From Calditrichia bacterium (GTDB taxonomy: Bacteria > Calditrichota > Calditrichia > Calditrichales > J004): a stretch of DNA of 51,213 bases. The position numbers and the translations under genes were made by a program. Under the pieces are notes generated by a model. It saw nothing but the letters and a program-made list of their open reading frames with translations. It made no database searches and was not told where the DNA came from. The DNA lies in the NCBI GenBank assembly GCA_026991535.1, contig JALXBH010000189.1:1-51213 (forward strand), written 5' to 3'. Numbering within the stretch: position 1 is the stretch's first letter; each line of letters begins with the position of its first letter. Of this stretch, positions 32,679 through 51,213 are shown in pieces.

Positions 32679-32687
32679 GCTGCTTGT

Positions 32688-33125
32688 CTTTGCGTGGGGA
32701 TCGGAATCCGATGAATCGGATTCTTCGAGCACGGTTCCCGTCCATCGGCCCCGCGAATGAATTCGCGGGTTACCCCTATGTGGCTTTGGCCGATGTTCCT
32801 GCGCACACCAGGCCGCAAAGGATACTATTGACCCCCGATTTCAATCGGGGGTATAACGCCTTACGACAGACCTGATCCTGTCTCATTCCCCCAACCTTAG
32901 TAGAAAAAAGTAAACCAAAAAAAATAATAACCTCATTACCTTATTCATATCGCCACATCAAAAAATAAGCTAATAAGGTCGAAAATATTTTAAACACCCA
33001 TGGCTACTAAGGTTGGATCGTTATATAAGGTTTTCCTGGTCTCAATCCGAATCCGATGAATCGGATTCTTCGAGCACGGTTCCAGTCCATCCGCCCCGCG
33101 AATGAATTCGCGGGTTACCCCTATG
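32688..33125 (-). repeat. REP/BIME-like composite, locus A (P1-P2-[TIR element]-P3-P1-P2 read on the minus strand)
   Basis: Hairpins at 32704-32723 (P2), 32750-32772 (P1), 32831-32852 (P3), 33049-33068 (P2), 33095-33117 (P1). Confidence 0.9.
32891..33016. mobile_element. MITE-like element, 126 bp, with perfect 13-bp terminal inverted repeats CCAACCTTAGTAG
   Basis: CCAACCTTAGTAG at 32891-32903 and CTACTAAGGTTGG at 33004-33016; AT-rich non-coding interior; second copy at 50810-50932. No target-site duplication seen. Confidence 0.6.
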
Positions 33126-33165
33126 AATCTTTGTGTGAGGATCAGCTTGAACGATGGCAGACGGT

Positions 33166-34170
33166 TTAAAACAACGGATCGATGGCCAGATTAAAGTTAA
33201 TTCTGTGTATATTGCCCAGCTCATTGGCATAGGCGGTAAAGGCGTAATCGAAGGATATGTGTGGCAGTTTAAGCCCAATGCCCGCGTTTAACCGTTGCAG
33301 GGCGTCCATTCCGGTGCGGATACTGATCACATCATTATAATTGATTTCCAGCCCCGCCATAAAATCGGCGCTGAAAGGACCCATGCTGGCCTGCGCGGCA
33401 AAATTCCTGCCTTCGCCCATAAATTGCGCGCCCACGGTCGGACTGACGGTAAGCGACAGGCTTTCCATAACCAGGGGCCAGGCCGCCCCCAGGCCGATAG
33501 TGGGACTCACCCACTGCTTTTCTCCGCTGTTCCAGGCAATCAGGGTTCCCGTTATATCCCGGGCCACCGCGCTCAGACGCAGCCCCCGCACACGGTATAA
33601 CAGGCCTATATCCAGCCCCATGCCCGCGGCCGTGGTAAAGTCGAAGTCCCGGTAGAGCATTTTTAATGTAGCCCCCCATGAAAGCTGCTTATTCCAGCGC
33701 CGGCTGTAAGAGGCGCTAAGGATATAGTCCCCGGTATTGAAGCTGCGTATCTTAGACTCATCCAATCCCACAAGCTCCAGCGTGGTTTGATCAAAAACGC
33801 CGGCGGAGGCGGTATTTTGAATATTGTTTACGGTAAGGAAATACAAGCTCAGCCCGATAACGGCTCCGTCATCATAGGGATGTGAAACAGCCAGGTAGTT
33901 GGTTTGAATGCTGCTGATAAACTGTTTGCTGTTCATAAACTGAAGCTGAAAGCCGTTCACCTCGCTTAAGGCGGCAGGGTTCCAGTAGGAAGCGCTGGCG
34001 TCATTAACTAAAGCGCCATAGGCGCCGCCTAAAGACGTTCCCCGCGCCCCGGCCCCCAGATACATAAATTCACCGGCATATTTTTTAAAGCCGCCCCCGG
34101 CCAGGGCCTGCCCGGAAAGCCCCGGGATTAGCAGCATGACGAGCAGTAAAAATATATTTCTGTTTTTCAT
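33166..34170 (-). CDS. PorV/PorQ-family (FadL-like) outer-membrane barrel protein
   Basis: Signal peptide; GAGARGTSLGGA..A..NDASASYWNPAAL; C-terminal DYAF....LGNIHRINF. Confidence 0.85.
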   Translation of the reverse strand: MKNRNIFLLLVMLLIPGLSGQALAGGGFKKYAGEFMYLGAGARGTSLGGAYGALVNDASASYWNPAALSEVNGFQLQFMNSKQFISSIQTNYLAVSHPYDDGAVIGLSLYFLTVNNIQNTASAGVFDQTTLELVGLDESKIRSFNTGDYILSASYSRRWNKQLSWGATLKMLYRDFDFTTAAGMGLDIGLLYRVRGLRLSAVARDITGTLIAWNSGEKQWVSPTIGLGAAWPLVMESLSLTVSPTVGAQFMGEGRNFAAQASMGPFSADFMAGLEINYNDVISIRTGMDALQRLNAGIGLKLPHISFDYAFTAYANELGNIHRINFNLAIDPLF

Positions 34171-34748
34171 ATTAAATGTTCACCCACGGTAAGCAGCACA
34201 CCCGTTGCCACCGGTAATATGAGATTATCGTTAAAACGGCCGGGAATCAGTTCCACAATGGCCAAAACGACAGCAACGGGCAGGGCCAGCTCCGGCGGCG
34301 TTGCCCCCAAAAGCATTATGCCCGCGCTCACCAGCACAAAAGCCGTGCTGCCTTCTAAAGTTTTATTGCCTAAACGGCGACGCCCCCAATGGGTTCCCAC
34401 AAGCGCCGCCGCCGAATCCGCCACAATGACCACCCACATGCTGATAATGGCAATGGAAGCGGGAAAAGCGATCACGCTCAGGCTCAGGCCGGCCATTAAA
34501 AAAGTGGCTCCATTGATAATCGTCGTCTCCTCTTCTTCTCTTAACATGAATCCGAGGGTTTTTATATACAGCTTTCTAAAATAGGCGGTATATGTTCTTA
34601 AAACTTCACCTGTAAATAAAAGAACAAGCATAACCGAACAAAGAAAAATCATTTCCGAACGGTTGAGAATGTATTGATACAGCAACGGGAATAGCGCCAT
34701 CGCCAGGTGGATGATTTTGCGTATCCACTCGCCCCGGGTATTACTCAT
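34167..34748 (-). CDS. Polyprenol/dolichol-kinase-like membrane protein (CTP_transf family)
   Basis: RKIIHL, LREEE, ADSAAALVG..WG, KTLEGS, NDNLILP. Confidence 0.85.
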   Translation of the reverse strand: MSNTRGEWIRKIIHLAMALFPLLYQYILNRSEMIFLCSVMLVLLFTGEVLRTYTAYFRKLYIKTLGFMLREEEETTIINGATFLMAGLSLSVIAFPASIAIISMWVVIVADSAAALVGTHWGRRRLGNKTLEGSTAFVLVSAGIMLLGATPPELALPVAVVLAIVELIPGRFNDNLILPVATGVLLTVGEHLI

Positions 34749-34822
34749 CCGTCATGTCCATTTTACAAAAACTAAACCCCATCTTCCGTATCAAAAAATC
34801 CCCCTACCGTTAAATACACCCC

Positions 34823-35584
34823 TTAGCGGTTGTTTTCCGCTGTTCCGCGGGGCATGCGGCTGACCCGAAGCACAATCTTATCCACATCCCTCAGCAATGC
34901 GCCCTGATCCGGTTTTTGCATAAGTACCGTATTGGAAAGATAATTTTCATTCTCTTCATATTCCACCTCTACCGGACCGGCGTTAAGCTGTTGCAACTGC
35001 TGTCGGGCGGCGCTCAGGCTTTTACCTACAAGATTGGGCATGGTGCGGGTTGAGGGTTTTTCCCCAAGGCTTACGGTTATGGTCACGGCGCTGTTTTTTG
35101 CGATCTCCTGGCCCTGAGGGAAGGACTGGCCGATGATGGCCCCCTCCGGATAAAGATCGGAATACTCATAGCGTACGTTTTTCAGCTTAAGCTGCATGGA
35201 GCCGAGAATGATTTCAGCCTCCCGGGCCGATTTTCCATAAAGATTGGGCATGATAAGCGCCTTTTCCCCACTGCTGATGGTCAGATAGACATTGCGCCCC
35301 ACCTTTACCGTGGAATAGGCGACCGGCCGCTGCTCTATAACCGTGCCCCGGGGATAGTGTGCGTCATAAACAGAATCGGCGATAATGACATTAAAGCCCC
35401 GCGAGCGCAACATATTCTCCGCCTCGGTTTCGGTACGCTCCACAACATCGGGCATTTTTATCTCATGGCCCAAATCCACGTACCAGGGCATGAGCAGACG
35501 GTCAAAGATAACGGCCAGTAAAAAAAGGAGTGCCACGTACACAAATCGACGCAGCCATTTATTTTCAAACATTCCCTGCTCCAT
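34823..35584 (-). CDS. Membrane-anchored PASTA-domain protein (three PASTA repeats, no kinase domain)
   Basis: TM helix then MPDVV, MPNLYG and MPNLVG repeats; start uncertain (35572-35590). Confidence 0.88.
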
Positions 35585-36035
35585 TAGCATTTTTCGGTTT
35601 ACTCTCTACAATCAGCGTAACAGGCCCTTCATTTATCAGTTCCACATCCATCATGGCCCCAAAAACGCCGCAGGCCACTTTAACATCATAGGATTTTATC
35701 CGTTCCACAAAGGCCTGATAAAAGGCGCGGGCCTTGTCCGGGGCGGCCGCGTTTATATAACTGGGCCGACGCCCTTTTCGCGTATCCCCCAGCAAAGTGA
35801 ATTGCGAAACAGCCAGAACCTCACCCTTCACATCAAGCAGGGAAAGATTCATTTTACCCGATGCGTCGCTAAAAATACGCAAGTTCAGGCATTTTTCCGC
35901 CATATAGATCAAATCGTCCTCGGTGTCATCGCGGTCTATGCCTATAAGCATCATCAGGCCGCGCCCAATGGCGCCGGTTACAGAGCCTTCCACGGTCACG
36001 GAGGCGCGTTTTACGCGTTGCAAAACAACTCTCAT
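35565..36035 (-). CDS. dtd: D-aminoacyl-tRNA deacylase
   Basis: [29 protein letters not shown]. Confidence 0.97.
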
Positions 36036-39000
36036 CCGCGTTCAATCATTTTTATGGCAATGTTTTCGCAGGATACCAGTTCGCAAAGCTGCCCAAGGGC
36101 AGGCAGGGTCAGCTTAATGCCGGCGCGCACCGAACGCATGGCAAAATCGCCCTGGCCGTTAAAGCGGAAATTCCAGAACACCTTTTGCCTGCCGGGGATG
36201 GACTCCAGCGTCATTTTCAGTTTCATAAGCATATCTTCGCTCATGCGGGACTGGTCTATGGTCAGGCGCAGGCTTTCGGTAAACTGTTCCGGTATTTGTC
36301 CCGGCGAATAGACGGATTCCACGCGTATGCGGATAACGCCGTCGGTAATATCGCCATTTAAAAAAGCCTTGACGAATACGATGGCCCCGTTTTTCAGATG
36401 TGGCTCGCATTGGGCGAATACCGAGCCGAAGATAACCCCGCTGAAATCGGCGTCATAACTTTTCAGGCCGATAAAGGCCATTTTGTTATTCTTCTTGTCG
36501 TATTGTGTGCGGTATTCGGAAATCTGCCCGCAAATATAAAGGGGCTTTTTCTCCGCGCCGTTCAAGGGTTTGTTTTCTTCCTTCTTGCGGATTAAGGCGC
36601 CGACGTCGGTGCCGTATAGTTCCACAATGGGCTTGTAGGGGTCCAGCGGATGACCGGAAACATAAAAGCCGATCATTTCCAGCTCTTTTTTTAATCTCTC
36701 TCCCATGTCCCAATCGGGAACATCCGGCAGGGGCGGCTCGCTTATTTCCAGGATATCCTCTTCACCGTCGCCGCCAAAGAGACTTATTTGATCCTTGTTC
36801 TGCAAAATACGGGCCTGAACGCTCTGACCGAATTCAATGGCGTTTTCCACGGCGTTGTATTTTTGGGCCCTGCTGCCCTTAAGGCTGTCCAGCGCGCCGG
36901 CCTGGGCCAGGGCTTCCAGTACCTTCTTGTTCACCTGACGTAAATCCACCCGCTTGGTCAGGTCAAACAAACTACTGTAGGGACCGTTGGCTTCCCGCTC
37001 GCGGACAATGTTATTGATGGCATTCTCTCCCACGTTTTTTATGGCGGCCATGCCAAAGGCGATATTTTTGTCATCCAGGGGGCGGAAATGAGCATGCGAA
37101 TAGTTGATGTCGGGCGGCTTAACGGTCAGGCCGATCCTTTTACATTCGGAAATCAAAAACTTTACCCGGTCCATCTTATTGATTTCGCTGGTAAGGTTAG
37201 CGCTCATAAATTCCGCCGGATAGTGGGCCTTTAAATAAGCCGTCTGGTAGGAGATGATGGCATAGGCGGCGCTGTGCGACTTGTTAAAACCATAGCGGGC
37301 AAACTTCTCGATAAGGTCAAAAATTTCCGTGGCGACCTTTTTGTCGATATTATTGCCCTCGCATCCCTTGACAAATTTGTCTTTTTGCTCGCGCATAACA
37401 TCGGCTTTTTTCTTACCCATGGCCCGGCGCATCATATCAGCTTCAGCCAGGGTAAAGCCGCCCAGGTCGGATACGATCCGCATCACCTGCTCCTGGTAGA
37501 CCATAATACCGTAGGTCTCCTTCAGGATAGGTTCCAGCAACGGGTGCAGATATTTTATCTCCTTACGGCCATATTTGCGATCGATAAAGTCGTCGATGAG
37601 GTCCATGGGGCCGGGACGGTATAGGGCGTTCATGGCGATCAGGTCTTCAATACGGCTGGGTTTTAGCTTTTTGATGTATTCCTGCATGCCCGTGCTTTCA
37701 AACTGAAAAATGCCGACGGTCAGGGCTTCGCCATAAAGTCTGAATGTCTCGGCATCATCCATGGGAATGTCACGAACACTAAAATCGATTTTATGACGCT
37801 CGCGGATCATCTTTTCCGTCTTGTGGATCACCGTCAGGTTGCGCAGCCCCAAAAAGTCCATTTTCAACAGGCCCATTTCCTCGCAATAACTCATGGTCCA
37901 TTGGGTTACGATGTCTCCGTGGGAAGATTTACACAGGGGGGCGTAATCGGTAATATCCGAAGGGGCTATGATCACGCCGGCGGCATGGGTGCTGTTATGG
38001 CGGGCGATCCCTTCCAGGGTTTGGCTGTACTCCACCAGTTCACGCATGACGGGGTCGTCGCTTTGGGCGATTTCCTTCAGTTCGGGTACCTCTGCAAAGG
38101 CCCGCTTAAGGCTGATGGGACTGGCGCCTTCCACGGGGATAAGCTTGGCGATCACATCCGCCTGTTGCAGGGGCACTTTTAAAACCCGGGAAACATCGCG
38201 CACCACGCTTTTAGAGCCCATGGTTCCAAAGGTAATGATCTGCGCCACATTGCGCCTGCCATACTTTTCGCGTACATATTCCAGCACGTCGTCACGGCGC
38301 TCCACGCAAAAATCCACATCGATATCGGGCATGCTGATCCGTTCGGGATTGAGAAATCTTTCAAAAAGAAGATCGTAGCGCAAGGGGTCCACATCGGTGA
38401 TGCCCAGGTTGTAGGCCACCAGGCTGCCCGCCGCCGAGCCCCGCCCCAGTCCCACGGGAATATCCATTTTCCGGGCGGCATTGATAAAGTCCTGCACAAT
38501 CAAGAAATAACCGGCAAAACCCATTTTTTCAATCACGTCCAGCTCAAAGTTCATGCGTTCCACAACTTCCTTGCCCATATCCGGGTAATGCCGCCGGGCG
38601 CCCTCTTCGGTCAGTTTTCGCAGATATTCATTTTCGCTTTTAACCCCCTCGGATTCGGGTATGGGAAATTTTGGCAGAAGGCGCTGATCAAAATCGAGCT
38701 CCAGATCGATCTTCTCAAAAATCTCCATGCTGTTTTCCAGCACATGGCTTTTGTCCTTAAAGATCGAAAACATCTCATCCGGTGATTTCATGTAAAGATG
38801 TTCCGTACCGTACTTCATGCGGTTGGGATCGTCGCGATCCTTGCCTGTTTGCAGGCAAATCAGCACATCGTGCGCCCTGTGATCGCCGTGGTTGAGATAG
38901 TGGGTATCGTTGGTGGCTACTACCTTTACGCCCATTTCCCGGGCCAGGTCATACACCTTGGGGTATACCGCCTGTTCATCGGGAATGCCGTGATCCTGTA

Positions 39001-39520
39001 TCTCAAAATAGAAATCATCACCAAACAGCTCGATATATTTTTCGGCATGGGCGATAGCCTCGCTTTTGCGGTCCGTCCGCAGCTTATGGGCGATTTGTCC
39101 GCTCATGCAGGCCGAAGTGACAATCAACCCCTCCGAATACTTTTTGAGTACTTCAAAATCTATGCGTGGCTTATAATACATTCCTTCCAGAAAAGCCGTG
39201 GAGGATAGCTTTATCAAATTACGGAAACCGGTGGCGTTTTTAGCCAGAATAACCAAATGATACGAGTCCTTCTCCCCTTCTATCTTTTGGCGCAGACCTC
39301 TTTCCGCGGGGGCCATGTAGGCTTCCATGCCAATGATGGGTTTTACGTTGTGCTTTTTACAGGTTTTATAAAATTCAACCGAGCCGAAAAGATTGCCGTG
39401 ATCGGTAATGGCCAGGCCGGGCATCTTTAATTCCGCGGCCCGCAGTACCATATCCTCTATCTTGGCCGCCCCGTCCAGCAGGGAGTAGTGAGTGTGACTG
39501 TGCAGATGTACAAATGACAA
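36032..39520 (-). CDS. dnaE: DNA polymerase III alpha subunit (no intein)
   Basis: [18 protein letters not shown] domain, [32 protein letters not shown]. Confidence 0.99.
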
Positions 39521-39784
39521 TGTAACGCCTTGATTTTTTATGTGAAATACGGGTTGTTACCTGATAAAAATCCGGCTTCAAATATAGAATAGCCGGATAT
39601 GAATAGCAAAAGCCAAATTAATAAAAAAGGCGTCTTGTAGCATAATTTTGTTATTGCTAAATTGAGCAGGTACATAGATAAAACATTTTATGAATACCCC
39701 TTAAGGATGGATGCCGCGCTGTCCTTCCGCTTTTGAAAGGAACCGCGGCTGCCAAAGGGGAAAATATTAAAAAAAGGAGTATGC

Positions 39785-41029: not shown

Positions 41030-41040
41030 TTTTTAATATA

Positions 41041-41072
41041 ACAAAGCCATCCGTTACGGATGGCTTTGTTTA
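41041..41072 (+). terminator. Intrinsic terminator after the DUF1015 gene
   Basis: Perfect 13-bp stem ACAAAGCCATCCG-TTA-CGGATGGCTTTGT with a T-rich tail. Confidence 0.85.
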
Positions 41073-41234
41073 TTGTTTTCTTCAAAAATCCATAGTTTTT
41101 CTTCTTGTGCATAATTTTTACAAGCACGGAAATTATTTAAGACTTCATGGGCTTTTATAGCGACATTCCTCCTCGCTTTTGTTCCTGGCATTACACTTGC
41201 ATTTCTCCGCTTAAACTTAACACGGAGCTATATT

Positions 41235-41891
41235 ATGCGAGTTATAACAATACTTATAGCGTTTTATATCTTCCCCCTTTTTCTTCAGGCAGGGAATTTT
41301 GATTTTGGGGCCGACATTGCCTATCGCCGAGGGCTTTCGTTTCAAATAGACGGTACCTTAAGCAAAATCAGTCGCGCTTTACCTTTCAAATTACGTATTG
41401 CCGCAGCCTATACTTCCCTTGATCCCGGCAATCCCGCCGCCGCAAGACGTATCTTTATCAACAACGCCACCAACGGAACGCCCGAGGAAGAGGGCTGGAT
41501 GTGGGACGTCCGTTTTGACGTGCTTTACAGGGTTGACTGGTTTTCGCTTAAGGATGCCTGGTTCTTTGCCGGACCGCGCTACTCCTGGTTTACGGGGCGC
41601 TTTGATTTTGTGGGCGGTAATGAGGATTTTGATATTTACTGCGACCAATGGGGTATTGGGGCGGGTTTGCAGTCTAATTACCCGGTATCAAAAAAGCTGA
41701 ATCTTGTTCTCAGCGCCGGCCTGGATTACTATATCACCGACTACCTCCACGGACATGATACAACCTACCACTCCAATGGTGAAATCTATAACGGTCGTGA
41801 GAATTACAACTTCAAGGATGCGGATGAAGCTATAAATCAACCCACCTTTGTGCCTAAGGTCGCCATTGGTTTTAGTTATCTGCTTTATTGA
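41235..41891 (+). CDS. Hypothetical outer-membrane beta-barrel protein
   Basis: Signal peptide, alternating aromatic/hydrophobic strands, C-terminal IGFSYLLY. Confidence 0.75.
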   Translation: MRVITILIAFYIFPLFLQAGNFDFGADIAYRRGLSFQIDGTLSKISRALPFKLRIAAAYTSLDPGNPAAARRIFINNATNGTPEEEGWMWDVRFDVLYRVDWFSLKDAWFFAGPRYSWFTGRFDFVGGNEDFDIYCDQWGIGAGLQSNYPVSKKLNLVLSAGLDYYITDYLHGHDTTYHSNGEIYNGRENYNFKDADEAINQPTFVPKVAIGFSYLLY

Positions 41892-42546
41892 TGATCGGAG
41901 AGTAACAGTACCACGAATTCCTTTGTGGCAGGTGCGGGAAAGAATAACGCCAAAAGCAAATAAGGGTAACCCGCGAATTCATTCGCGGGGCAGGTGGAGG
42001 CGTACCACCCCCGATGGAATCCGATTCATCGGATTCCGATTCCCACAAAAAGAGGCCAATGGGCAGGGCCAATAAGGTTGGGTTGTGTCATAAGGCGTTA
42101 TGCCCCCGATTGAAATCGGGGGTTAACAGTATTCCATGTGGCCAGGTGTGGGCAGGAATATCAGCCCAGGCCACATAGGGGTAACCCGCGAATTCATTCG
42201 CGGGGCGGATGGAGGCGTACCACCCCCGATGGAATCCGGTTCATCGGATTCTGATTCACACACAAAGGGCTAATGGGCGGGGCCAATAAGGTCAGGGTGT
42301 GTGATAAGGCGTTGTACCACCGATTGAAATCGGGGGTTAACGGTATTCTTTTAGGCCTGGTGCGGAAAAGAATATCAGTCCGGGCCACATAGAGTTAACC
42401 CGCGAATTCATTCGCGGGGCAGATCGAGGTGTACCGAACTCGATGGAATCCGATTCATCGGATTCCGGTTTGGATTCCAAACCTTGAGATCAGGGTTAAT
42501 ACATATTGCCTTTACGGCCTGGTGTGAGATCCAGGAAAAGTTATAA
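41889..42546 (+). repeat. REP/BIME-like tandem array, locus B (~215-bp unit, about 3 copies)
   Basis: P1 at 41968, 42183, 42397 (periods 215 and 214); P2 at 42016, 42231, 42445; P3 at 42103, 42317; degenerate partial units at both ends. Confidence 0.92.
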
Positions 42547-42571
42547 AAAGGCGCCGCACGAATACGGCGCC
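42545..42571 (-). terminator. Intrinsic terminator after the HMA gene
   Basis: GGCGCCGTA-TTCG-TGCGGCGCC then TTTTT on the minus strand. Confidence 0.75.
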
Positions 42572-42592
42572 GGATAAAATCAAGAGCTGGTT

Positions 42593-42814
42593 CTACTCTT
42601 CAACAACCTCATAGTGGGTGCCGTTGATGGCCATAGTGATAAACATCGGATCGGTCTGTTCCGCGTCATAAACCACGGTGGCCGTGCCATCCGCATGGGA
42701 AGCCTTAACCGATTGCACCCCTTCAACCTCCATCACCGCATTCTGCACGGTGTTTTCACACCCACCGCACATCATACCTTTTACTTTTAGGGTCACTTCC
42801 TGAATATCTGCCAT
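42593..42814 (-). CDS. Heavy-metal-associated (HMA) domain metallochaperone, CopZ-like
   Basis: LKVKGMMCGGC; start MADIQ with AAGGAG RBS. Confidence 0.9.
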   Translation of the reverse strand: MADIQEVTLKVKGMMCGGCENTVQNAVMEVEGVQSVKASHADGTATVVYDAEQTDPMFITMAINGTHYEVVEE

Positions 42815-42916
42815 TATTTTCTCCTTAATTTTGGATTGATTGCCTTTATGCATGTTCATAGATTGTTTTTTTAAGGATAAACACGATCCACTCTTTTTAA
42901 TTTTCGCGGAGAATCT

Positions 42917-43186
42917 ATGTCCATAGCCGAAGAATTACTCAACATTCTGTGCTGCCCCGAAACCCGGCAGGACCTTAAAGTTATGAACGATAAACAGATT
43001 ACAACCCTGAACCGCTGGATTCGTTCCGCGGATGTTCACTATCGGGACGGTTCCGGGATCGACCTGCCCGTTACCGGGGCCCTGATAACGGAGGACGGCA
43101 GTCGTTGTTATCTCATCATTGACGATATCCCTGTTATGCTGACCGATAAAATCATCGATCTGGACGAGGGATGGCAAAGTATGTAA
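42917..43186 (+). CDS. Trm112/YcaR-like protein
   Basis: LLNILCCPET...YLIIDDIPVML. Confidence 0.85.
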   Translation: MSIAEELLNILCCPETRQDLKVMNDKQITTLNRWIRSADVHYRDGSGIDLPVTGALITEDGSRCYLIIDDIPVMLTDKIIDLDEGWQSM

Positions 43187-43192
43187 CGTCCC

Positions 43193-44563
43193 CTACAGGC
43201 CCAGGCTGTCGATCAGATAAAGCAGCGCGCTAAGCGACGCCGTGCCCAGCTCCAGTTCCCGGCGATTGACGGCCTCAAATAAATCCCGGTCCGAGTGGTG
43301 AAAGTCGAAATAACGCTGGGAATCGGGAATCAGGCCGATCAGCGTTGTTCCCATGGCTTTGCCCAGGGGCCCGATATCCGCGCCGCCTCCGCCATCCCTG
43401 ATTTCACTTATGGTAAAGGGGGGGAAATATTTCAACCATAACTTCATCGTTTCCAGTTGCCGCCCCTTGCCGCTGATACCAAATCCCCGGGGCGTAAAAC
43501 CACCGGCGTCCGTTTCTATAGCCGCGATATGGTACTGTTTTTCCCCGGCCGCTGTTTCGGCATATTTTTTACCGCCACGCAGACCGTTTTCCTCATTCAT
43601 AAAACATACAACACGCAAAGTGTTACGCGGCTTATAACCGGCCTGGCGCAGAAGGGCCGCGGCCATGATACTATGGACAATCCCCGCTCCGTCATCCTGC
43701 GCTCCCTCGCCCACATCCCAGGCGTCCAGGTGACCGCCAATGACGATTATTTTTTCGGGATGCTCCGATCCGCGAATTTCACCAATCACATTGTAGGATT
43801 TTTTATCGGTATAGGTTTTACTGTTTATCTTCAAAAACAAGCGGGTATCCGGTTCCTTTTGCCAGGCCCGGTACAGGCGATCGGCGGATTGATAGCCCAA
43901 AGCGGCCGCGGGAATTTTGGGAACGTCCCTGGCGTAAACCAGTGAACCGGTATGGGGATAATCGTCGCGGGCGGTGGTTACCGAACGGATAACCACGGCC
44001 ACGGCGCCTTTGCGCGCCGCCTCGGAAGCGCCGGCCACCCTTTTCATTACGGCAGTTCTGTATCCGTACATGGTTTGAACAAATGTATCCGGAAACGCGG
44101 CATTGTAAAATACAATTTTGCCTTTCACATCCCCGGCGGACATGTTTTTGATATCCTCCACGTCATCCACCACCACCAAAGGGGCGCTAATGCCCTGTTC
44201 CGCCGTGGCCACGGAACGCCCCAGCGCCAGCACCGACAGTTTTTCCCGCCTGCCCCGGGGATCAACCATAAAACAGCTTTCCGCCTCGCCGCGCACCCAA
44301 TGGGGCACCATTACCTCTTGCAGGTAAACCTTGTCAAAGCCCAGTGCTTCCATACTTTTACGCGCCCATTGAACCGCCCCTTCCGCGTCGGGCGAACCCG
44401 ATAAACGATGCGGATATTGTGACGTCAGTTCCCGCAGCAGATCATAGGCCTGATGTTTCTCCTGCGCCTGCTTATACAATCGTTCAATAAATCCCTTGTG
44501 CGGCCGCTCGCCCGCTGTAAGCAAGCCAACTATAAGTAATAAAAAGGCAACCCTTCTGCTCAT
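43193..44563 (-). CDS. Secreted M28 family metallopeptidase (carboxypeptidase Q-like, PA domain)
   Basis: RLSGS, GGHLDAWDVGEGAQDDGAG, NEENGLRGG, ETDAG, HHS..D. Confidence 0.92.
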   Translation of the reverse strand: MSRRVAFLLLIVGLLTAGERPHKGFIERLYKQAQEKHQAYDLLRELTSQYPHRLSGSPDAEGAVQWARKSMEALGFDKVYLQEVMVPHWVRGEAESCFMVDPRGRREKLSVLALGRSVATAEQGISAPLVVVDDVEDIKNMSAGDVKGKIVFYNAAFPDTFVQTMYGYRTAVMKRVAGASEAARKGAVAVVIRSVTTARDDYPHTGSLVYARDVPKIPAAALGYQSADRLYRAWQKEPDTRLFLKINSKTYTDKKSYNVIGEIRGSEHPEKIIVIGGHLDAWDVGEGAQDDGAGIVHSIMAAALLRQAGYKPRNTLRVVCFMNEENGLRGGKKYAETAAGEKQYHIAAIETDAGGFTPRGFGISGKGRQLETMKLWLKYFPPFTISEIRDGGGGADIGPLGKAMGTTLIGLIPDSQRYFDFHHSDRDLFEAVNRRELELGTASLSALLYLIDSLGL

Positions 44564-44587
44564 CGAATATCTCCCTGTGCCATAAGA

Positions 44588-45469
44588 TTAATTTTCGGGG
44601 TAGGTGGAAAATCCATCTTCCTCGCTCCAAACCAATTTGGGAAAATACAATTTATCATCAATCCCCGCAAACGCACGTTCACGCCCGTAGCCCAGATTAT
44701 GGGAAAAATACCGCACACCTTCAATTTCTCGATAGCGGTTACGGTGTTGATGGCCGTATATGTGAAAAACAGAACCCATGGCCCGTAGTTGAATATCCAG
44801 ATGGGCGCTGCCGGCAAAACGGCTAAAGTTAAATTTCGGATGGGGGTCTTTAAAGGGACGGCCCTGTTTATCCACGGGCCTTTTCAGGCTCATTATCAAA
44901 TCACGGCGGGGCAAAAAATGGCTAAAGGACAATACGGGCGCCTGAAAAAAACGGGTATCGTGCTCCAGATTCCGGCCTAAGAAAAAATCGGAGGCGTTAT
45001 CCGCGCCGTCAAAAACCGGCCAGACTATATGATAGTCGTCCATCCATACCTTAAGGCCGGGGTCTTCCCCCGGTTTGCGCATATAAAGGCTGTCAGGCCC
45101 TTCCTCCGGTTTAACATACCAGGAGAAGAGTGGCAGAACACAGAGCGAAGGAGTCTCCTCCCCTATCAGGCGCGGACTGTATTCAACCTCGCAGGAGGCG
45201 CATACATTCAGCACCTTATAAAATTTCTCCAGGGAATGGCTGTATCCGTCCCGGCGTATCCATAAATCGTGATTGCCGGGAACAAAGAATACACGCGCAA
45301 AGCGATGCTTCAGCAAAAGAAGCGTTTTCTCCAGGATGCCGATATCATCGCTGATGTCACCGGCCACGATTATTATATCGGAAGTGTAATCTTCCAGAGA
45401 GAGGTTGCTCACCCAGCGCATGTTTTCCCGGAAGTCGGTATGCAGATCGGAAATGGCCCAGACGCGCAT
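44588..45469 (-). CDS. Calcineurin-like metallophosphoesterase, PptH-like
   Basis: WAISDLH, VAGDIS, RFARVFFVPGNHDLW, SHFLP, YGHQH, LGYGRER. Confidence 0.85.
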   Translation of the reverse strand: MRVWAISDLHTDFRENMRWVSNLSLEDYTSDIIIVAGDISDDIGILEKTLLLLKHRFARVFFVPGNHDLWIRRDGYSHSLEKFYKVLNVCASCEVEYSPRLIGEETPSLCVLPLFSWYVKPEEGPDSLYMRKPGEDPGLKVWMDDYHIVWPVFDGADNASDFFLGRNLEHDTRFFQAPVLSFSHFLPRRDLIMSLKRPVDKQGRPFKDPHPKFNFSRFAGSAHLDIQLRAMGSVFHIYGHQHRNRYREIEGVRYFSHNLGYGRERAFAGIDDKLYFPKLVWSEEDGFSTYPEN

Positions 45470-45471
45470 AA

Positions 45472-45831
45472 TCAGGAGTGAAAGATGCGCAGGCCCACAA
45501 TGCCTGCAATAATCAGCATGATGCTCAATATACGGGCCAGGGTGACCGGCTCGCTAAACAACAGGAAACCACCCACCACGGTGCCTACAACCCCTATGCC
45601 GGTCCAGGCGGCGTAGGCTGCGCCAACGGGTAAATAGCGTACACTGATGCTTAACAGCCAGACGCTAACCGCCATAGTCGCCAAAACAAAAAAAACCGGA
45701 GCGAGGCGTGAAAAACCCTCCGTGTATTTCAGGCCAAGAGCCCAGGCCGTTTCAAACAATCCGGCCAGGCTTAACAACACCCAGGCCTGACCGTTACTCA
45801 GGTGCGATAGCGAAATATTCAATTTAAACAA
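45472..45831 (-). CDS. sugE: SMR family small multidrug/guanidinium exporter (SugE/Gdx-like)
   Basis: AW..L.LAGLFE.AWALGLKY.EGFSRL, LPVGAAYAAWTGIG; TTG start overlaps the egtD stop. Confidence 0.88.
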   Translation of the reverse strand: MFKLNISLSHLSNGQAWVLLSLAGLFETAWALGLKYTEGFSRLAPVFFVLATMAVSVWLLSISVRYLPVGAAYAAWTGIGVVGTVVGGFLLFSEPVTLARILSIMLIIAGIVGLRIFHS

Positions 45832-46780
45832 CCTTTAAGTAGTGTATGCTAAAATAGCGGCGCTCATCCGTCCAGACCCGTTGCGGTTGAAATCCGGCTT
45901 CGCGCGCCAACTGCCGGAATTCTTCTATATCATATTTATAGGAAGATTCCGTCCAGATAGACTCATTTTCTTCAAACTCAATTACCGAGCCGTTTATGCT
46001 GACCCGCTGTTTGTCATTGCTGACTATGTGCATCTCTATGCGGCCGGCCTCGGCGTTGTACAGCGCCTTGTGTTCAAACTTGTCCAGATCAAAATCACTG
46101 CCCAGTTCCCTGTTCAGCCGTTCCAGTTGGTTCAGGTTAAAGGCGGCGGTCAGCCCCCGGGCGTCGTTGTAGGCGGCGTGTAAAACACGTTCATCCTTTT
46201 TTAAATCCACGCCGATAATCAGGCCGCTGCCCCGGCCGCACACGGCGGCCATATTTTGCAAAAAGGCGCGTGCTTCATCCCGGTGAAAATTACCGATGGT
46301 GGATCCCGGAAAGTAAACGACTCTTTTTTCTACCTGCGTACGCGGTTGCGGCAAGCCAAAAGGCTTGCTGAAATCGGCACAGACCGGAATAACCTCCAGG
46401 CGCGGATAACGACGGGCTATGGCGGCGGCGCTTTCTTTTAAAAAAGCGCAGGATATGTCTATGGGCACATAAACCTCTATGCCGCTTTTCGCATCCAGAA
46501 TGCGCTTTATTTTTTCGCTGCTGCCGCTGCCGTATTCTATCAGCATGACCCGGCGCCCAATCACCTCCACCATTTCATCCATATATTTTTCCATAATGGA
46601 TAATTCGGTGCGTGTTACATAATACTCATCCAGGTCGCAAATCGCGTCAAACAGCTTTGAACCGCGCTCATCATAAAAGTATTTACTGGGCAGGGTTTTG
46701 GGACGCAGGCTCAGTCCAGATAAAACTTCACGGTACATGGCTTTTATTCCCGTATCATCCTTTTTTACTTCAGGCTCCAT
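45824..46780 (-). CDS. egtD: L-histidine N-alpha-methyltransferase (Methyltransf_33)
   Basis: LPSKYFYDERGS.LF..IC.L.EYYVTRTE, EYGSGS, FPGSTIGNF, AYND..G.TAAFNLN, RIEMH, TESSYKY. Confidence 0.93.
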   Translation of the reverse strand: MEPEVKKDDTGIKAMYREVLSGLSLRPKTLPSKYFYDERGSKLFDAICDLDEYYVTRTELSIMEKYMDEMVEVIGRRVMLIEYGSGSSEKIKRILDAKSGIEVYVPIDISCAFLKESAAAIARRYPRLEVIPVCADFSKPFGLPQPRTQVEKRVVYFPGSTIGNFHRDEARAFLQNMAAVCGRGSGLIIGVDLKKDERVLHAAYNDARGLTAAFNLNQLERLNRELGSDFDLDKFEHKALYNAEAGRIEMHIVSNDKQRVSINGSVIEFEENESIWTESSYKYDIEEFRQLAREAGFQPQRVWTDERRYFSIHYLKVV

Positions 46781-46789
46781 ACTTTTTCC

Positions 46790-47074
46790 TTACGATTCCG
46801 AAACGTCCACACCGCGCCAAAAGGCAATATAGCCTTCTATGGGCCTGGCCGCTTCCTTTGTTTTCGGGTAATACCATGCGGCGTCGCGGTTTTCCTTTCC
46901 ATCCACGCTCAGGGTGTAATAACTGGCGATCCCTTTCCAGGGACAACTGGTGTGCGTTTGGCTCTCTTCCAAATATTCCCGGCGCACGCTGGCGGGCGGA
47001 AAATAGTGATTGCCTTCCACGACGATGGTCTCATCGCTCTCGGCCACAACCTTACCATTCCATACTGCCTTCAT
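46790..47074 (-). CDS. DUF427 family protein
   Basis: MKAVWNG.V.AESD.T..VEGNHYFP, CPWKG.ASYY, AWYYP, YIAFW; start MKAVW with AGGAG RBS. Confidence 0.92.
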   Translation of the reverse strand: MKAVWNGKVVAESDETIVVEGNHYFPPASVRREYLEESQTHTSCPWKGIASYYTLSVDGKENRDAAWYYPKTKEAARPIEGYIAFWRGVDVSES

Positions 47075-47166
47075 AAAATCTCCTAAAATGTTCGCCCACA
47101 AAGTCCCGAATGGATATCACGTTTTTATCACAGAGATAAAATAAGTATCTGCCAAAACAGACGCAG

Positions 47167-47763
47167 CTACTCTTCGTTATCGGCCATCTCTTCCCGCAGG
47201 CGCACCGGCCCCTGGTTTTCTGGAATTTTGCCCTTCATGCCGGCATAAAAATCACGCAGGCGCTGCATATCCTCGGGTATATTACCGCTGGGCATAAAAG
47301 AGGGACCAATACCGGCCACCTTATTTTCCCAGTCTTCATAGCCCATGGCAATGGGTACCCCGGCCGCCAGGGCAATGCGATAAAAGCCGCTTTTCCAATA
47401 GGGCGCCCTGGAGCGGGTGCCGTCGGGGGCTATCACAAAGGCAAAGCGATCATGTTTTTTTATCTGTTCGGCTATCTGCTCCACAAAATTGGTACGTTTA
47501 CGGCGATTTACCGGTACACCGCCCAGCCACAGCATATACTTTCCGAATAAGCCTTTAAACAGCGTGTCCTTGGCCGCCCATTTAAATTCAATCCCCATCA
47601 CATAGGAAGCCAGCAGCATAACCACCAAATCCCAGTTGGAAGTATGCGGTACCGCCAGCAATACAAATTTTTCCGAGGGGGGCGTGGTGTACTCCACTTT
47701 CCATCCAAACAGACGCAGAACGGCGCCGGAGAGGCGCGCGGACCATTTTTTATTTTCTGGCAT
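47167..47763 (-). CDS. Lysophospholipid (1-acyl-sn-glycerol-3-phosphate) acyltransferase family
   Basis: PHTSNWD (HxxxxD), APDGTR, WKSGFY; start MPENK. Confidence 0.9.
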   Translation of the reverse strand: MPENKKWSARLSGAVLRLFGWKVEYTTPPSEKFVLLAVPHTSNWDLVVMLLASYVMGIEFKWAAKDTLFKGLFGKYMLWLGGVPVNRRKRTNFVEQIAEQIKKHDRFAFVIAPDGTRSRAPYWKSGFYRIALAAGVPIAMGYEDWENKVAGIGPSFMPSGNIPEDMQRLRDFYAGMKGKIPENQGPVRLREEMADNEE

Positions 47764-48628
47764 CGATTTTTCCCGGTTTATATAAAACTTTTTTTTCCGT
47801 AAGCCACAGGGCGCCCAGCACAAACAAACCGCCAAAGGTCAGACGGGCAATATCCGCCTTCTCGCCGAAAAAAACAAGGGCTACCGCGATGGCCAGCGGT
47901 ATTTTTAAATTATTGAACACGGCCAGAGTCCCCGCATTAACAAGGGTCGCTCCCCTGTTCCATAAAAAGAAACCGAGTCCCGAGGCCACAAGACCAAGGT
48001 AGATCAGAGTCAGCCATTGTCCGGTTTCCAGACCCCGGGGAACGATTTCGCCGAAGGCCAGCACATAAACCAGGGTAAGAGATACCGCCCCGAGGAAGAA
48101 AGCGCCCATGGGGGAAGCGTCACCGGTCTCTCTGTTTTTATTGCGCCATATTTTATAGGCCACCTGACCGGCGGCAAATGAGAGGTTGGCTCCCTGAATC
48201 ATGAAAAAGCCCAGGGTCAGCGCATAGCTTTTTCCGGGTTCGTAAACGATAGCGCCCGTTCCGGTCACGGCAATAATGGCCGCAAGTAAATTCCTGCTGT
48301 TCAGACGCCTGTTGTAAAGATCATACATAAGAGACACATAAAGAGGGGTTGAGACGGTAAACAGGGCCACCTGCCAGGCCGTCAGCCATTTAAAGGAATT
48401 AATGTAAAGCAGATACATCAGCCCGAATTGAACCATGCCACTGAAAAAGGCCGCGAGGAAGGCGGCGCGCCCCTTTCGCCAAAGGGCGGGCAAAAAAGGC
48501 GCGAAAACAACAAAGGACAACAGAAGCCTGAAAAAAGCCACAAAGCCGGCATCGACACCGCTAAGTTCACCTTTGATGAGACTGAAGGAAAATGCCCACA
48601 GGATGGATACGGACAAGAGATTGATCAT
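47750..48628 (-). CDS. EamA/DMT transporter, YigM (BioP)-like
   Basis: ILWAFSFSLI, QFGLMY..Y, LFT..TPLYV, LG.VASGLGFFLWN.GA..V.AGTLA..NN. Confidence 0.85.
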   Translation of the reverse strand: MINLLSVSILWAFSFSLIKGELSGVDAGFVAFFRLLLSFVVFAPFLPALWRKGRAAFLAAFFSGMVQFGLMYLLYINSFKWLTAWQVALFTVSTPLYVSLMYDLYNRRLNSRNLLAAIIAVTGTGAIVYEPGKSYALTLGFFMIQGANLSFAAGQVAYKIWRNKNRETGDASPMGAFFLGAVSLTLVYVLAFGEIVPRGLETGQWLTLIYLGLVASGLGFFLWNRGATLVNAGTLAVFNNLKIPLAIAVALVFFGEKADIARLTFGGLFVLGALWLTEKKVLYKPGKIDARK

Positions 48629-48800
48629 GGAATGAAAATTAAAGAACGGCGGGGATAAATAGCAACCGGATTCCCATTAATTTGAAAAAGAGAGAAACAT
48701 TTGAACTTTTTAGGGGCAACCTTTAAATTTATAGGCTTTTCTACTAACAACGACCGACATAACGAATTTTTCCATAGGAACTTAAGGAGAACAAAGCGCT

Positions 48801-50606
48801 ATGATGACAAAAATGCGCCAAATGAGCAAGATGATATTCTGGGTTGTAGGGCTCGCCTTTATTGCCCTGATTGTTTTTGAGTGGGGCGCGGATGTTAACC
48901 GCGGCGGGGGCGATACGACCCTGGGAGAAGTAAACGGGCAAAAACTATCCCTACAGGAATTTAACGATCTCTACCGGGCCGCGCTGGAAAACGAACGGGC
49001 GCGGACAAAGGGCGAGCTTTCCGAATTAAGAAGCCAACAAATCCGGGATCAGGTTTGGGAACAGTTTGTTCAGCGTGTGCTGCTTAGGGAAGAAATGGAA
49101 AAGTTGCATATCGCCGTTTCCGATTCCGAAATCGTCTATCAAATTATGAATCATCCCCTGGATGAATTCAAGAAGGACCCCGCCCTGCAGACCAATGGTA
49201 TTTTCGACATGAAAAAATACCAGGCGGCCCTCTCCAACCCGAATATTCCCTGGGCACAGATCGAGGACTTTTACCGTCAACAGATTCCATTTCAAAAACT
49301 GCAGAACCTCATAACCAGCTCCGTACGCGTAAGTCCGGCGGAAATAAAGGATGAGTTTATCCGTAAGAATGTTAAGGCCAAGGTGGAGTATCTGGCCGTG
49401 CTCAGTAACCGCTTCCGTACCCAAACCGACGTTACCGACGGGGAACTGGAGGAGTGGTACGAAAAACACAAGGATGAATATAAACGTGACGAAAGCCGTG
49501 ACCTGGCCTATGTTTTGTTTGAGATAAAGCCCACCGCGCGCGATACGCAGATCGTGTTTAACGAAATCGACAAGATAAAGGAGCGCCTTGCCCTTGGTGA
49601 GGATTTCAACCTGCTGGCCCTGCAATATTCAGAAGACCCCAGTGTTTCCGAAAACCGCGGAGACCTGGGATATTTTGAACGTAAGGCCATGGTTCCGGCA
49701 TTCAGTGATGCGGCTTTTTCCGCAAAACCCGGCGAAGTAATCGGGCCGGTAAAAACCAACTACGGCTACCATATCATAAAGGTTGAAGACAAGAAAAAGA
49801 TAGACGGTGTTGAAAAAGTGAAAGCCAGCCACATCCTGCTTAAGATTGTGGCCGGCCCCAGCACCCTGGCCGAACAGGAAGACAAAGCCCAGGCTTTTTC
49901 CAGGGATGCCAAGGAAAACGGTTGGGATGAAACCGTGGCCGCTGACAATTATGAAGTTAAAACCACCGGCTATTTTGAGGAAAAAAGCGGTTTTATTCCC
50001 GGTATCGGACGTAATGCCGCCATTATGGCTTTTGCCTTTATGAATGAAAAAGGGGAGGTTTCCGGAATATATTCCCTAAACAACAATAAAGCCTATGCTG
50101 TTTTTAAAGTGAACGACATTCTGCCCGCGGGATACAAGCCCCTGGCCGATGTGCGTGCCCTGGTTGAAAATGAAGTCCGTTTTGACAAGGCCCGTTCCCT
50201 GGCCCGCGCCTATGCCTCGCGGATTGAACCCGATGTAAAAGCCGGCAAGGCCTTTAAAACCATTGCCGAGGCGGATACCGGTAAAATAGTTAAATATGAT
50301 GTAACCCGTATGTTTGCCCTTAGCGAATCGGTTCCCGGCGTTGGCAAAATTCCGGAATTCAACGGCACCGCCTTCCGGTTAAAGCCCGGAGAGGTCTCGG
50401 AGATGATCGATACTGAATCGGGAATGTTTTTTGAAAAGCTGATTGAAAAAAGTGCATTTGACAGCACGGCCTTTAATGATCAAAAGGAACTGATTCGTCT
50501 GCGTATCCTTAATGCACGCCGGCAGGCTGTTTTCAGTAAGTGGTACCAGCAGCTTAAGGATAACGCCGATATTGTGGACAACCGGAAGAAGTTTAATATC
50601 TTTTAG
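48801..50606 (+). CDS. ppiD: PpiD-like peptidylprolyl isomerase (SurA N-terminal plus parvulin domain)
   Basis: N-terminal TM anchor, F..LA..YSED.S...GDLGYF....MVPAF..AAF, GYHIIKV. Confidence 0.88.
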   Translation: MMTKMRQMSKMIFWVVGLAFIALIVFEWGADVNRGGGDTTLGEVNGQKLSLQEFNDLYRAALENERARTKGELSELRSQQIRDQVWEQFVQRVLLREEMEKLHIAVSDSEIVYQIMNHPLDEFKKDPALQTNGIFDMKKYQAALSNPNIPWAQIEDFYRQQIPFQKLQNLITSSVRVSPAEIKDEFIRKNVKAKVEYLAVLSNRFRTQTDVTDGELEEWYEKHKDEYKRDESRDLAYVLFEIKPTARDTQIVFNEIDKIKERLALGEDFNLLALQYSEDPSVSENRGDLGYFERKAMVPAFSDAAFSAKPGEVIGPVKTNYGYHIIKVEDKKKIDGVEKVKASHILLKIVAGPSTLAEQEDKAQAFSRDAKENGWDETVAADNYEVKTTGYFEEKSGFIPGIGRNAAIMAFAFMNEKGEVSGIYSLNNNKAYAVFKVNDILPAGYKPLADVRALVENEVRFDKARSLARAYASRIEPDVKAGKAFKTIAEADTGKIVKYDVTRMFALSESVPGVGKIPEFNGTAFRLKPGEVSEMIDTESGMFFEKLIEKSAFDSTAFNDQKELIRLRILNARRQAVFSKWYQQLKDNADIVDNRKKFNIF

Positions 50607-50628
50607 CTTAAGGGCTACTCTGTTAATT

Positions 50629-50660
50629 ACCCCCGGCGCTACTGCGTCCGGGGGTTTTTT
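50629..50660 (+). terminator. Intrinsic terminator after ppiD
   Basis: ACCCCCGGCGC-TACT-GCGTCCGGGGGT followed by a T run. Confidence 0.8.
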
Positions 50661-50699
50661 ATTGGAGGGAATACGCTCTATCTAAGCCTTACAGAGCCT

Positions 50700-51085
50700 C
50701 GCAGGGATAACCCGCGCATTCATTCGCGGGGCGGATGGTAGCGTACCACCCTCGAAAGAATCCGAATCATCGGATTCGGGTTGAGACCAGGATAACCTTA
50801 TATAACGATCCAACCTTAGTAGCCCCGGGTGTTTAAAATATTTTTGACCTTAATTAGCTTATTTTTTGATGTGGCGGTATGAATAAGGTAATAAGATTAT
50901 TTTTTTGGTTTACTTTTTTCTACTAAGGTTGGGGTGGAAAATAAGGTTTGGTCTTCTTATAAGACGTTATACCTCCCCGATTGAAATTGGGGGTTAACCG
51001 AATCCTTTCCGGCCCTGTGAGGGAATGAATATAACCCAAAGCCACATAGGCTTAACCCGCGCATTCATTCGCGGGGTGGATGGAC
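50700..51085 (+). repeat. REP/BIME-like composite, locus C (inverted, diverged copy of locus A)
   Basis: P1 50708-50730, P2 50758-50777, TIR element 50810-50932, P3 50975-50997, P1 51053-51075; collinear with the reverse complement of ~32735-33125. Confidence 0.9.
50810..50932. mobile_element. MITE-like element, second copy (123 bp), 13-bp terminal inverted repeats
   Basis: CCAACCTTAGTAG at 50810-50822 and CTACTAAGGTTGG at 50920-50932; interior is a close reverse complement of 32891-33016. Confidence 0.6.
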
Positions 51086-51104
51086 ACGGAAGTTGCCTGA
51101 AAAG

Positions 51105-51149
51105 TGGAGCTGAATCCCGAGGCTTCGGGAAACCGCTGACCTCTTGCTT
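51105..51149 (-). pseudogene. 3' fragment of a tRNA-Ala-like gene (about positions 37-73) with a palindrome replacing part of the T-arm
   Basis: Reverse complement AAGCAAG-AGGTC-AGCGG-TT-[TCCCGAAGCCTCGGGA]-TT-CAGCTCC-A; U70 and A73 fit the Ala determinants. Confidence 0.65.
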
Positions 51150-51159
51150 TGGGTCAATA

Positions 51160-51188
51160 TAAAAAAAGCCCATCCTGCGACGAGCTTT
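51160..51188 (-). terminator. Intrinsic terminator for a minus-strand RNA entering from the window end
   Basis: AAAGCTCGTC-GCAG-GATGGGCTTT followed by TTTT on the minus strand. Confidence 0.7.
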
Positions 51189-51192
51189 ACAG

Positions 51193-51213
51193 TGGAGCTG
51201 AGTCCCGAGGCTT
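51193..51213 (-). tRNA. 3' end of a probable tRNA-Ala (truncated by the window), carrying the same palindrome
   Basis: Reverse complement ...AAGCCTCGGGA-CT-CAGCTCC-A, directly followed by a terminator; only 21 nt are visible. Confidence 0.45.

Follow-up and report, generated by a model that had tools for sequence, protein, structure and literature searches.

Three intergenic repeat clusters of a Calditrichia bacterium as probable mosaic REP/BIME-type arrays of two interleaved palindromic families

The 51,213-nucleotide (nt) contig JALXBH010000189.1 (C189; the window, by which we mean this whole stretch) comes from the 3.87-Mb draft genome, in 333 contigs, of an uncultured Calditrichia bacterium of the phylum Calditrichota (GCA_026991535.1; G000) and carries three clusters of short palindromes, here called P1, P2, and P3. 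These clusters are probably mosaic arrays of the kind formed by repetitive extragenic palindromes (REPs) and bacterial interspersed mosaic elements (BIMEs; also REP doublets forming hairpins, REPINs), in which two palindromic families, the P-type hairpins and an AT-rich module that we call B, are interleaved. The repeat family is a fresh example of a known element type and not a new type. As shown in Table 1, and as an initial annotation of the window had reported, P1 occurs seven times, P2 six times, and P3 four times in a fixed order at three loci, arrays a, b, and c (repeat counts are positions with at most three mismatches throughout, unless marked exact), and no further copy of any of the three was found on the rest of the contig. 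Such recurrence of exact 20-mers cannot be chance. All three loci lie between convergent units, which also agrees with the initial annotation; in the case of array c, this was established through a sister species, in which the stretch orthologous to the window end (L028) holds a tRNA-Ala(GGC) gene and, behind it, an 88-nt unit repeated 5.1 times. Because this 88-nt repeat begins in the window, the earlier label "tRNA-Ala-like" is fair and junction c is convergent, although ARAGORN detected no tRNA at the window end itself. The one further convergent junction that had been noted, 43186/43193, indeed has a gap of only 6 nt and no array, but it is not the only one, as a second tight junction without an array lies at 15107/15131 (23-nt gap, from crude gene calls).

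The spacing of the hairpins is regular. From start to start, P1 precedes P2 by 46-47 nt and P3 precedes the next P1 by 82 nt, whereas the distance from P2 to P3 is 86 nt in a short form (array b) and 216-217 nt in a long form (arrays a and c), so that the short-form unit has a period of 214 nt and the long-form unit one of ~345 nt. Tandem Repeats Finder reported a period of 214, 2.5 copies, and 84% matches for positions 41929-42467. The P2-P3 linker comes in three variants (short, half-B, and full B), and the B module, which is present in arrays a and c, had not been mentioned in the initial annotation. B is ~120 nt long with the termini AACCTTAGTAG...CTACTAAGGTT, the first of which includes GTAG, and in most units of three species it occupies the P2-P3 interval in constant relative orientation. 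Its outer stem, or terminal inverted repeats, spans 13-15 bp, and its single-stranded DNA folds have energies of -13.3 kcal/mol (z -3.3) in array a and -13.9 kcal/mol (z -2.65) in array c; the fold of array b (41950-42480) reaches -126.7 kcal/mol (z -9.7). The 11-mer AACCTTAGTAG has 38 exact copies in the genome against ~1.8 expected, and a half-site of ~70 nt, consisting of AACCTTATT, ~12 nt, AACCTTAGTAGAAAA, ~22 nt, and CTTATT, is common to 38/38 of them. This half-site is found singly or as an inverted doublet, the latter being the B module. We note that the linkers of a related species of the same genus (G002; L006, L089, and L091) contain, in place of B, CCCCCTGTCATTCCGAACGCAGTGAGGCATCCC, a CACCACAAAGTCGCCAAGAC... 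box, and the hairpin AAACCGATGCATCGGTTT.

P1, P2, and P3 each have a stem of 8-9 bp and a 4-nt apex, TGAA for P3 and TTCA for the other two. When P3 plus its 3' tail is reverse-complemented and set against P1 plus its 5' tag, 19/23 positions are identical (TAACCCCCGATTTCAATCGGGGG and TAACCCGCGAATTCATTCGCGGG), and the match includes the TAAC tag as well as the asymmetric apex. P3 is therefore an inverted P1-like hairpin, and P3...P1 forms an inverted REP doublet, the arrangement on which BIMEs and REPINs are built; P2 adds a third hairpin related to these. The P3-P1-P2 order is kept, and the stems carry compensated changes, in the more distant G002 and G008 (G001, G002, and G003 are related species of the same genus, G008 a sister genus of the same family), where the P1 counterpart is CCCACGACTTCAGTCGTGGG in G002 and the P3 counterpart is CCCATGATTAAAATCATGGG in G008, the unit of the latter being only 123 nt long. 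Among 17 distinct hairpins of the P1/reverse-complemented P3 type, both-sided changes were found in 5/9 pairs and the covariation score was reached by 0/500 shuffles; the set was picked by regular expression and by having at least 7/9 pairs, a rule that inflates the percentage paired and not the compensatory changes. In the P2 type (13 hairpins), compensatory changes occur in 3/9 pairs. RNAalifold recovered only three short stems from 29 P3-P1-P2 blocks, and for the additional P3-P1 and P1-P2 stems, seen in single folds only, no covariation was demonstrable. Further, the hairpins change less than the sequence around them. When orthologous arrays are compared between G000 and G003, differences are found at 29/400 hairpin positions and at 169/1218 other array positions (odds ratio 0.49, Fisher p = 3e-4; the orthology of inner units is uncertain), and the eight full P3-P1-P2 blocks within G000 diverge by 2.9% in hairpin columns and 24.6% in linker columns. 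The low hairpin divergence fits selection, and gene conversion among identical short palindromes could contribute to it.

The initial annotation had supposed that a transposase encoded elsewhere in the genome serves the repeats. A profile search for Y1_Tnp (PF01797) did return a single match in G000, on contig C180 (63 bits; 62.9 against a cut-off of 23), a 161-amino acid (aa) open reading frame (ORF) with the motifs HVHFLV and YILNQ..HH, but this Y1/HUH gene is flanked by B and not by P1, P2, or P3. On either side of it, B occurs twice as a direct repeat, and between the two lies a duplicated fragment of the gene's 5' end that reads EFNNLDTHFIF compared with EFNNLFTHFIF. The closest homologues of the C180 protein, with 74% and 71% identity, are encoded in two genomes of another family of the same order, and the B 11-mer borders both genes on each side, with 10 exact matches in L073 and 5 in L074. 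B is thus the cognate repeat of the C180 transposase lineage, and the layout of the locus is that of the REPtron described in the literature, a single Y1 gene of the REP-associated tyrosine transposase (RAYT) group flanked by its REPs, where a REP doublet is the BIME/REPIN unit (PMC6006769, as far as that description goes). Y1 genes as such are widespread in the phylum, as 72/86 genomes have matches.

Searching the whole genome for P1, P2, and P3, as the initial annotation had proposed, revealed more copies beyond the window: 19 positions of P1 (13 exact), 17 of P2 (10 exact, the total including two 3-mismatch singletons on other contigs), and 15 of P3 (6 exact). All are intergenic on ORF maps, and the arrays occupy eight places on six contigs, namely C30, C63, C96, C129, C189 (three places), and C278. 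At six places the flanking units converge; this is seen directly for C63, C96, C129, and window arrays a and b, and for array c via the tRNA-Ala side in G003. By crude gene calls, convergent gaps account for 369/2873 intergenic gaps (12.8%) genome-wide and for 127/928 of those of at least 100 nt. The convergent bias is real. The array on C278 runs off its contig. The claim that the repeats are placed only at convergent junctions fails genome-wide, since the arrays on C30 lie in two co-directional gaps around a small ORF and a nucleotidyltransferase gene. The small ORF overlaps the nucleotidyltransferase gene (L010 4211-5185; 232 aa, PF12281 NTP_transf_8, 74 bits), and the gene pair, with array units on both sides, looks like an inserted two-gene cassette. 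Contig C32 of G001 has the same arrangement. The description of the repeats as a REP/BIME-like, non-coding, non-autonomous, lineage-restricted family was upheld. BLAST with array b found the repeats in 5/41 genomes, all from one taxonomic family (the window's own, those of three congeneric species, and that of one species from a different genus), and nothing in the other 36, and a P1-core pattern with a G+C-rich stem base occurred in 5/86 genomes of the phylum.

Comparison of the array places among species indicates how the family has changed. Unit number varies at orthologous places: array c measures ~0.4 kb here and ~2.7 kb in G003, the C96 place 0.5 kb here and 1.0 kb in G003, and on a metagenome contig that matches C129 at 98-99% identity, the array at this place has one more B-containing unit, which could stem from genuine inter-array exchange or from misassembly. 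At junction b, G003 has an array of ~1.15 kb, twice as long as here, and lacks the 218-aa ORF (41235-41891) that is present beside array b here and in G001. Other junctions are empty. Junction a is a gap of ~110 nt in the diverged DNA of G001, and the junction behind the PpiD-like gene (array c in the window) contains only that gene's terminator in G001 and G002. Conversely, the homologous P3'-P1'-P2 units of G002 stand at other places. At least one of these places (C256) corresponds to a plain gap of 120 nt in G000, and another (C197) differs in synteny. The exact insertion boundaries and the target site were not recoverable from these comparisons, as the empty-site genomes are too diverged for the intergenic DNA to be aligned. 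Taken together, the P family was mobile in the past, and later change has mainly been local gain and loss of units.

The mechanism we propose is as follows. A Y1/HUH transposase of the RAYT type would recognise the hairpins as single-stranded DNA, cut and rejoin them, and so seed copies in intergenic DNA; duplication and recombination among the units would afterwards lengthen or shorten the arrays locally, and copies would persist mainly at the 3' ends of genes, where they are presumed least harmful. A Y1 enzyme may have mobilised P1-P3 in this lineage and may since have been lost or may be missing from the assembly, and the arrays may have a host role at present. The resemblance to REP/REPIN-RAYT systems and to the BIMEs of Escherichia coli lies in the short extragenic palindromes, the inverted doublets (P3/P1 and the B half-sites), the tandem mosaic of palindromes and conserved linkers, and the 3'-end bias, and that to REPtrons in the single Y1/HUH gene flanked by its own repeats, here B. 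The likeness to E. coli BIMEs is one of architecture only, with P3 inverted relative to P1 and P2. In contrast to classic REPs, copies number tens and not hundreds and are clustered at about eight places, and each unit combines three different hairpins with a nested second family. Published accounts show some of this range: REPs are described as lying mostly between co-directional and convergent ORFs, with some families clustered at few loci and tandem clusters that include flanking DNA (PMC3733652, in the portions dealing with these families), and some RAYT groups are given only ~12-14 copies of the flanking 16-mer (PMC5581495, in the portion reporting those counts). Compared with the published descriptions, the three-hairpin unit, the nested transposase-linked second family, and the few clustered places are what is distinctive here.

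The initial annotation had considered the composite design to be undescribed, a claim that does not stand as made because an 18-nt REP-like palindrome of Caldithrix abyssi, aAACCGTTgaAACGGTTt, with a directional GA/TC centre, intergenic and often between convergent genes, has already been reported (PMC5317091); the section of that report on the palindrome gives no conservation beyond the 18 nt and no larger repeat. On that description, it resembles the P-type hairpins in phylum, in the stem of 8-9 bp, and in the central GA/TC that confers direction, and its TC form is identical to a hairpin flanking a Y1 gene in G008 (AAACCGTTTCAACGGTTT). It differs in that the hairpins here are built into tandem three-hairpin units of 214 nt (or ~345 nt), and P2 of the window departs from it by compensated stem changes. 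A second counterpart is the group of GTAG-tagged REP families that cluster in blocks, such as GTAG-23 of Thermomicrobium roseum, described as REPs reiterated tandemly together with pieces of flanking DNA (PMC3733652, in its passage on that family); B shares a terminal GTAG with it and the P-type hairpins do not, and the likeness is by description and not by sequence.

P-type hairpins do stand beside Y1 genes in other genomes. In G008 (L017), four-hairpin units lie on both sides of one Y1 gene, and their hairpins include TAACCCCCGAATTYATTCRGGGG, which is P1-like and has the same TAAC tag, and the P2-like AAACCGTTTCAACGGTTT. A scan for the exact P1 20-mer in one genome per species returned 24 stretches, comprising Calditrichia records, scattered singletons, and several Anaerolineae drafts with tandem arrays; among viral contigs there was no exact P1 match. 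The Anaerolineae arrays (L066, L067, L041, and L051) are built of tandemly repeated units, 120-142 nt long and each with three or four hairpin types, and share with the window arrays the identical P1 20-mer and P3-like hairpins. In L066, arrays that contain a P3-like hairpin and an exact copy of the P1 20-mer occupy both sides of a Y1 gene, and in L067, three-hairpin units do so and a piece of the gene's 3' end is duplicated along with the unit. The differences are that these arrays belong to another phylum, that their remaining hairpins and linkers are unrelated and B is absent, and that the Y1 proteins are only 26-28% identical to that of G000 (32-35% for the L017 protein of G008). With the cross-phylum identity of Y1 proteins at only 26-35%, the shared 12-nt core CGAATTCATTCG may derive from shared ancestry or from a shared way of being recognised, and in the protein comparison the P1-type hairpins followed no clear single transposase lineage. 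We found no paper describing the Anaerolineae multi-hairpin arrays, and no literature search was aimed at such arrays. A wider claim, which we put forward only tentatively and regard as doubtful, is that multi-hairpin "REP cassettes" of this kind form an unrecognised class of REPs apart from the GTAG/CGTC ones, common to Calditrichota and Anaerolineae, flanking Y1 genes, many of them sharing CGAATTCATTCG, and in the genus of the window outliving their own transposase under selection at convergent junctions, where they would serve the host. Units of such a class would be repeated tandemly, and each would contain 3-4 distinct hairpins with stems of 8-9 bp and a TTCA/TGAA apex. We note that the repeat unit is duplicated together with the 5' end of the Y1 gene on C180 (L001 1075-1160 and 2040-2125) and together with the 3' end of the Y1 gene in the Anaerolineae locus (L067 800-940), which suggests that unit duplication beside Y1 genes proceeds by one process in both phyla.

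Several observations weigh against reading the window arrays as REP/BIME-type mosaics. First, the only Y1 gene of the genome is not flanked by P-type hairpins, the C180 contig having no match to P1, P2, or P3, and its protein falls under both relevant NCBIfam cut-offs (IS200, 51.1 against 55; REP_Tyr_transpos, 20 against 80). Likewise, no Y1 gene flanked by P1, P2, or P3 was found in G001, in G003, or on two P1-bearing metagenome contigs, which is weak evidence because the drafts are fragmented and genes bordered by repeats are poorly assembled; the Y1 gene of G001 and that of G002 each lie at a contig end. Second, the P family is far below classic REPs in copy number, P1 and the reverse complement of P3 carry a TAAC tag, and none of P1-P3 has the GTAG or CGTC of the known REP super-families. 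Third, all array places seen in G003 and on the G000-like contigs of G001 are orthologous to places in G000, so there is no sign of new insertions since these lineages split. Fourth, P1 and the Anaerolineae hairpin may have become identical convergently, in a 4-bp stem base around the 12-nt core that they share, and the neighbouring Y1 proteins have only 26-35% identity to those of this lineage. Finally, all assemblies are fragmented drafts, which makes copy counts lower bounds and absences weak, and the array-bearing contigs of G001 are 91-98% identical to G000, whereas the G001 orthologues of window genes are 66-80% identical. The contigs of the first group are C32, C85, C88, C161, C169, and C203, and those of the second C73, C151, and C56. 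G001 may be a mixed bin or a mosaic genome, which matters for presence/absence counts that use it.

Some of these observations would follow if the arrays were orphans, that is, if the transposase of P1-P3 were gone and the arrays were kept for a DNA-level host role, for example as sites for gyrase or a nucleoid protein, as described for E. coli BIMEs, which are reported to bind gyrase and IHF. No cognate Y1 gene was found in G000, G001, or G003, all places are common to G003, the bias is toward convergent junctions, and the hairpins diverge at half the rate of the linkers between orthologues and eight times more slowly between paralogues. However, the transposase gene may simply have been missed by the draft assembly, conversion between units can also conserve short identical hairpins, no binding protein is known here, and G001 and G002 lack arrays at the same junctions, so the arrays are not essential there. 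We therefore consider this explanation unlikely.

Further, the arrays might be host RNA elements, 3'-end structures that stop or stabilise converging transcripts and have spread without a transposase. Their position at 3' ends, convergent in six places, their very stable folds, and stems that are conserved relative to the linkers and show compensatory changes would all agree with such a role, as would junction a, which has no canonical terminator on either side; a scan of 32500-33300 listed no site there, and at arrays b and c only loose matches to P2. But no hairpin is followed by a T-run, and the P hairpins are thus not terminators. The HMA-domain and PpiD-like genes beside arrays b and c retain terminators of their own outside the repeats, the latter (identified by direct reading, as the scan did not list it) being conserved in two other species that lack the array at this junction. 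Of the single-sided stem changes, 11 are of the G-U type and 8 of the A-C type; there is no strand bias, the copies are not independent, and the comparison is not informative. Among 11 runs considered for RNA evidence, none was listed as containing RNA. Rfam returned only four tRNAs for the whole window at gathering scores and nothing credible for 41850-42600 at E values up to 10, in keeping with the earlier expectation that the unit matches no catalogued family. In addition, unit number varies freely among close relatives and related arrays adjoin Y1 genes. Although a 3'-end role could still apply at junction a, where no canonical terminator is present, we consider it improbable that the family as a whole is explained in this way.

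The 13-15 bp terminal inverted repeats of B might also suggest miniature inverted-repeat transposable elements of a DDE-type insertion sequence, but B has no target-site duplication beside it (its flanks merely extend the palindrome, CC...GG), its half-sites also occur singly, its copies border Y1 genes in G000 as well as in L073 and L074, and the P1-P3 unit has no terminal inverted repeats of its own, which leaves this explanation very remote. CRISPR arrays, integron attC sites, and a plain satellite were dropped, as, apart from C30, neither spacers nor cassettes separate the units and as the units are dispersed over several places and linked to Y1 genes.

Returning to the reading of the arrays as REP/BIME-type mosaics, the locus is a worked example of REP/RAYT biology in the little-studied Calditrichota, with a mosaic that combines two nested repeat families, only one of which has a visible transposase. 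It is thus a test case for whether a RAYT can mobilise a composite that contains its own REPIN and whether orphan REP arrays persist through use by the host. For annotation, the arrays explain the contig breaks at these places and the long intergenic gaps in these drafts.

Table 1. Repeat arrays, their component hairpins and modules, and neighbouring terminators in the window
Feature	Position	Strand	Remarks
Array a	32688..33130	-	P1-P2-[B]-P3-P1-P2 in unit orientation; opposite orientation to arrays b and c
P2 hairpin	32704..32723	-	exact
P1 hairpin	32750..32769	-	exact
P3 hairpin	32832..32851	-	exact; inverted P1-like REP
B module	32891..33016	-	long imperfect hairpin; doublet of GTAG-containing half-site; termini CCAACCTTAGTAG / CTACTAAGGTTGG
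P2 hairpin	33049..33068	-	exact
P1 hairpin	33095..33114	-	exact
Array b	41929..42480	+	P1-P2-s-P3-P1-P2-s-P3-P1-P2 (s, short linker); short form without B arms
P1 hairpin	41970..41989	+	exact
P2 hairpin	42017..42036	+	exact
P3 hairpin	42103..42122	+	exact
P1 hairpin	42185..42204	+	exact
P2 hairpin	42232..42251	+	1 mismatch (A-to-G, giving G-T)
P3 hairpin	42317..42336	+	1 mismatch
P1 hairpin	42399..42418	+	exact
P2 hairpin	42446..42465	+	exact
Terminator of HMA-domain gene	42550..42571	-	canonical intrinsic; between gene and array b, outside repeat
Terminator of PpiD-like gene	50630..50662	+	canonical hairpin and T-run; upstream of array c, outside repeat
Array c	50692..51085	+	P1-P2-[B]-P3-P1; orthologous to L028:4492-4877, ~90% identity
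P1 hairpin	50711..50730	+	1 mismatch
P2 hairpin	50758..50777	+	1 mismatch
B module	50810..50932	+	long hairpin; half-site doublet
P3 hairpin	50974..50993	+	2 mismatches
P1 hairpin	51056..51075	+	1 mismatch

As for the neighbouring genes, array a occupies the convergent gap from the stop at 32678 to the stop at 33166, between an ORF with TPR matches in Pfam (31428-32678, plus strand) and an ORF at 33166-34170 (minus strand), and is collinear with a sister-species contig (L029:25-441). Array b lies between the ORF at 41235-41891 (plus strand), which has no Pfam match, and the HMA-domain ORF at 42593-42859 (minus strand), and array c follows the ORF at 48801-50606 (plus strand), which encodes the PpiD-like SurA_N/rotamase protein. 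Beyond array c, positions 51100-51213 (minus strand) are the first 1.3 copies of the 88-nt tRNA-Ala repeat, which in the sister species (L028 1718-2234) combines a tRNA 3' portion whose T-arm is altered with a hairpin/T-run terminator and which also has copies on contig C73 of G001; repeated integration scars and a tRNA-derived repeat are both possibilities for its origin.

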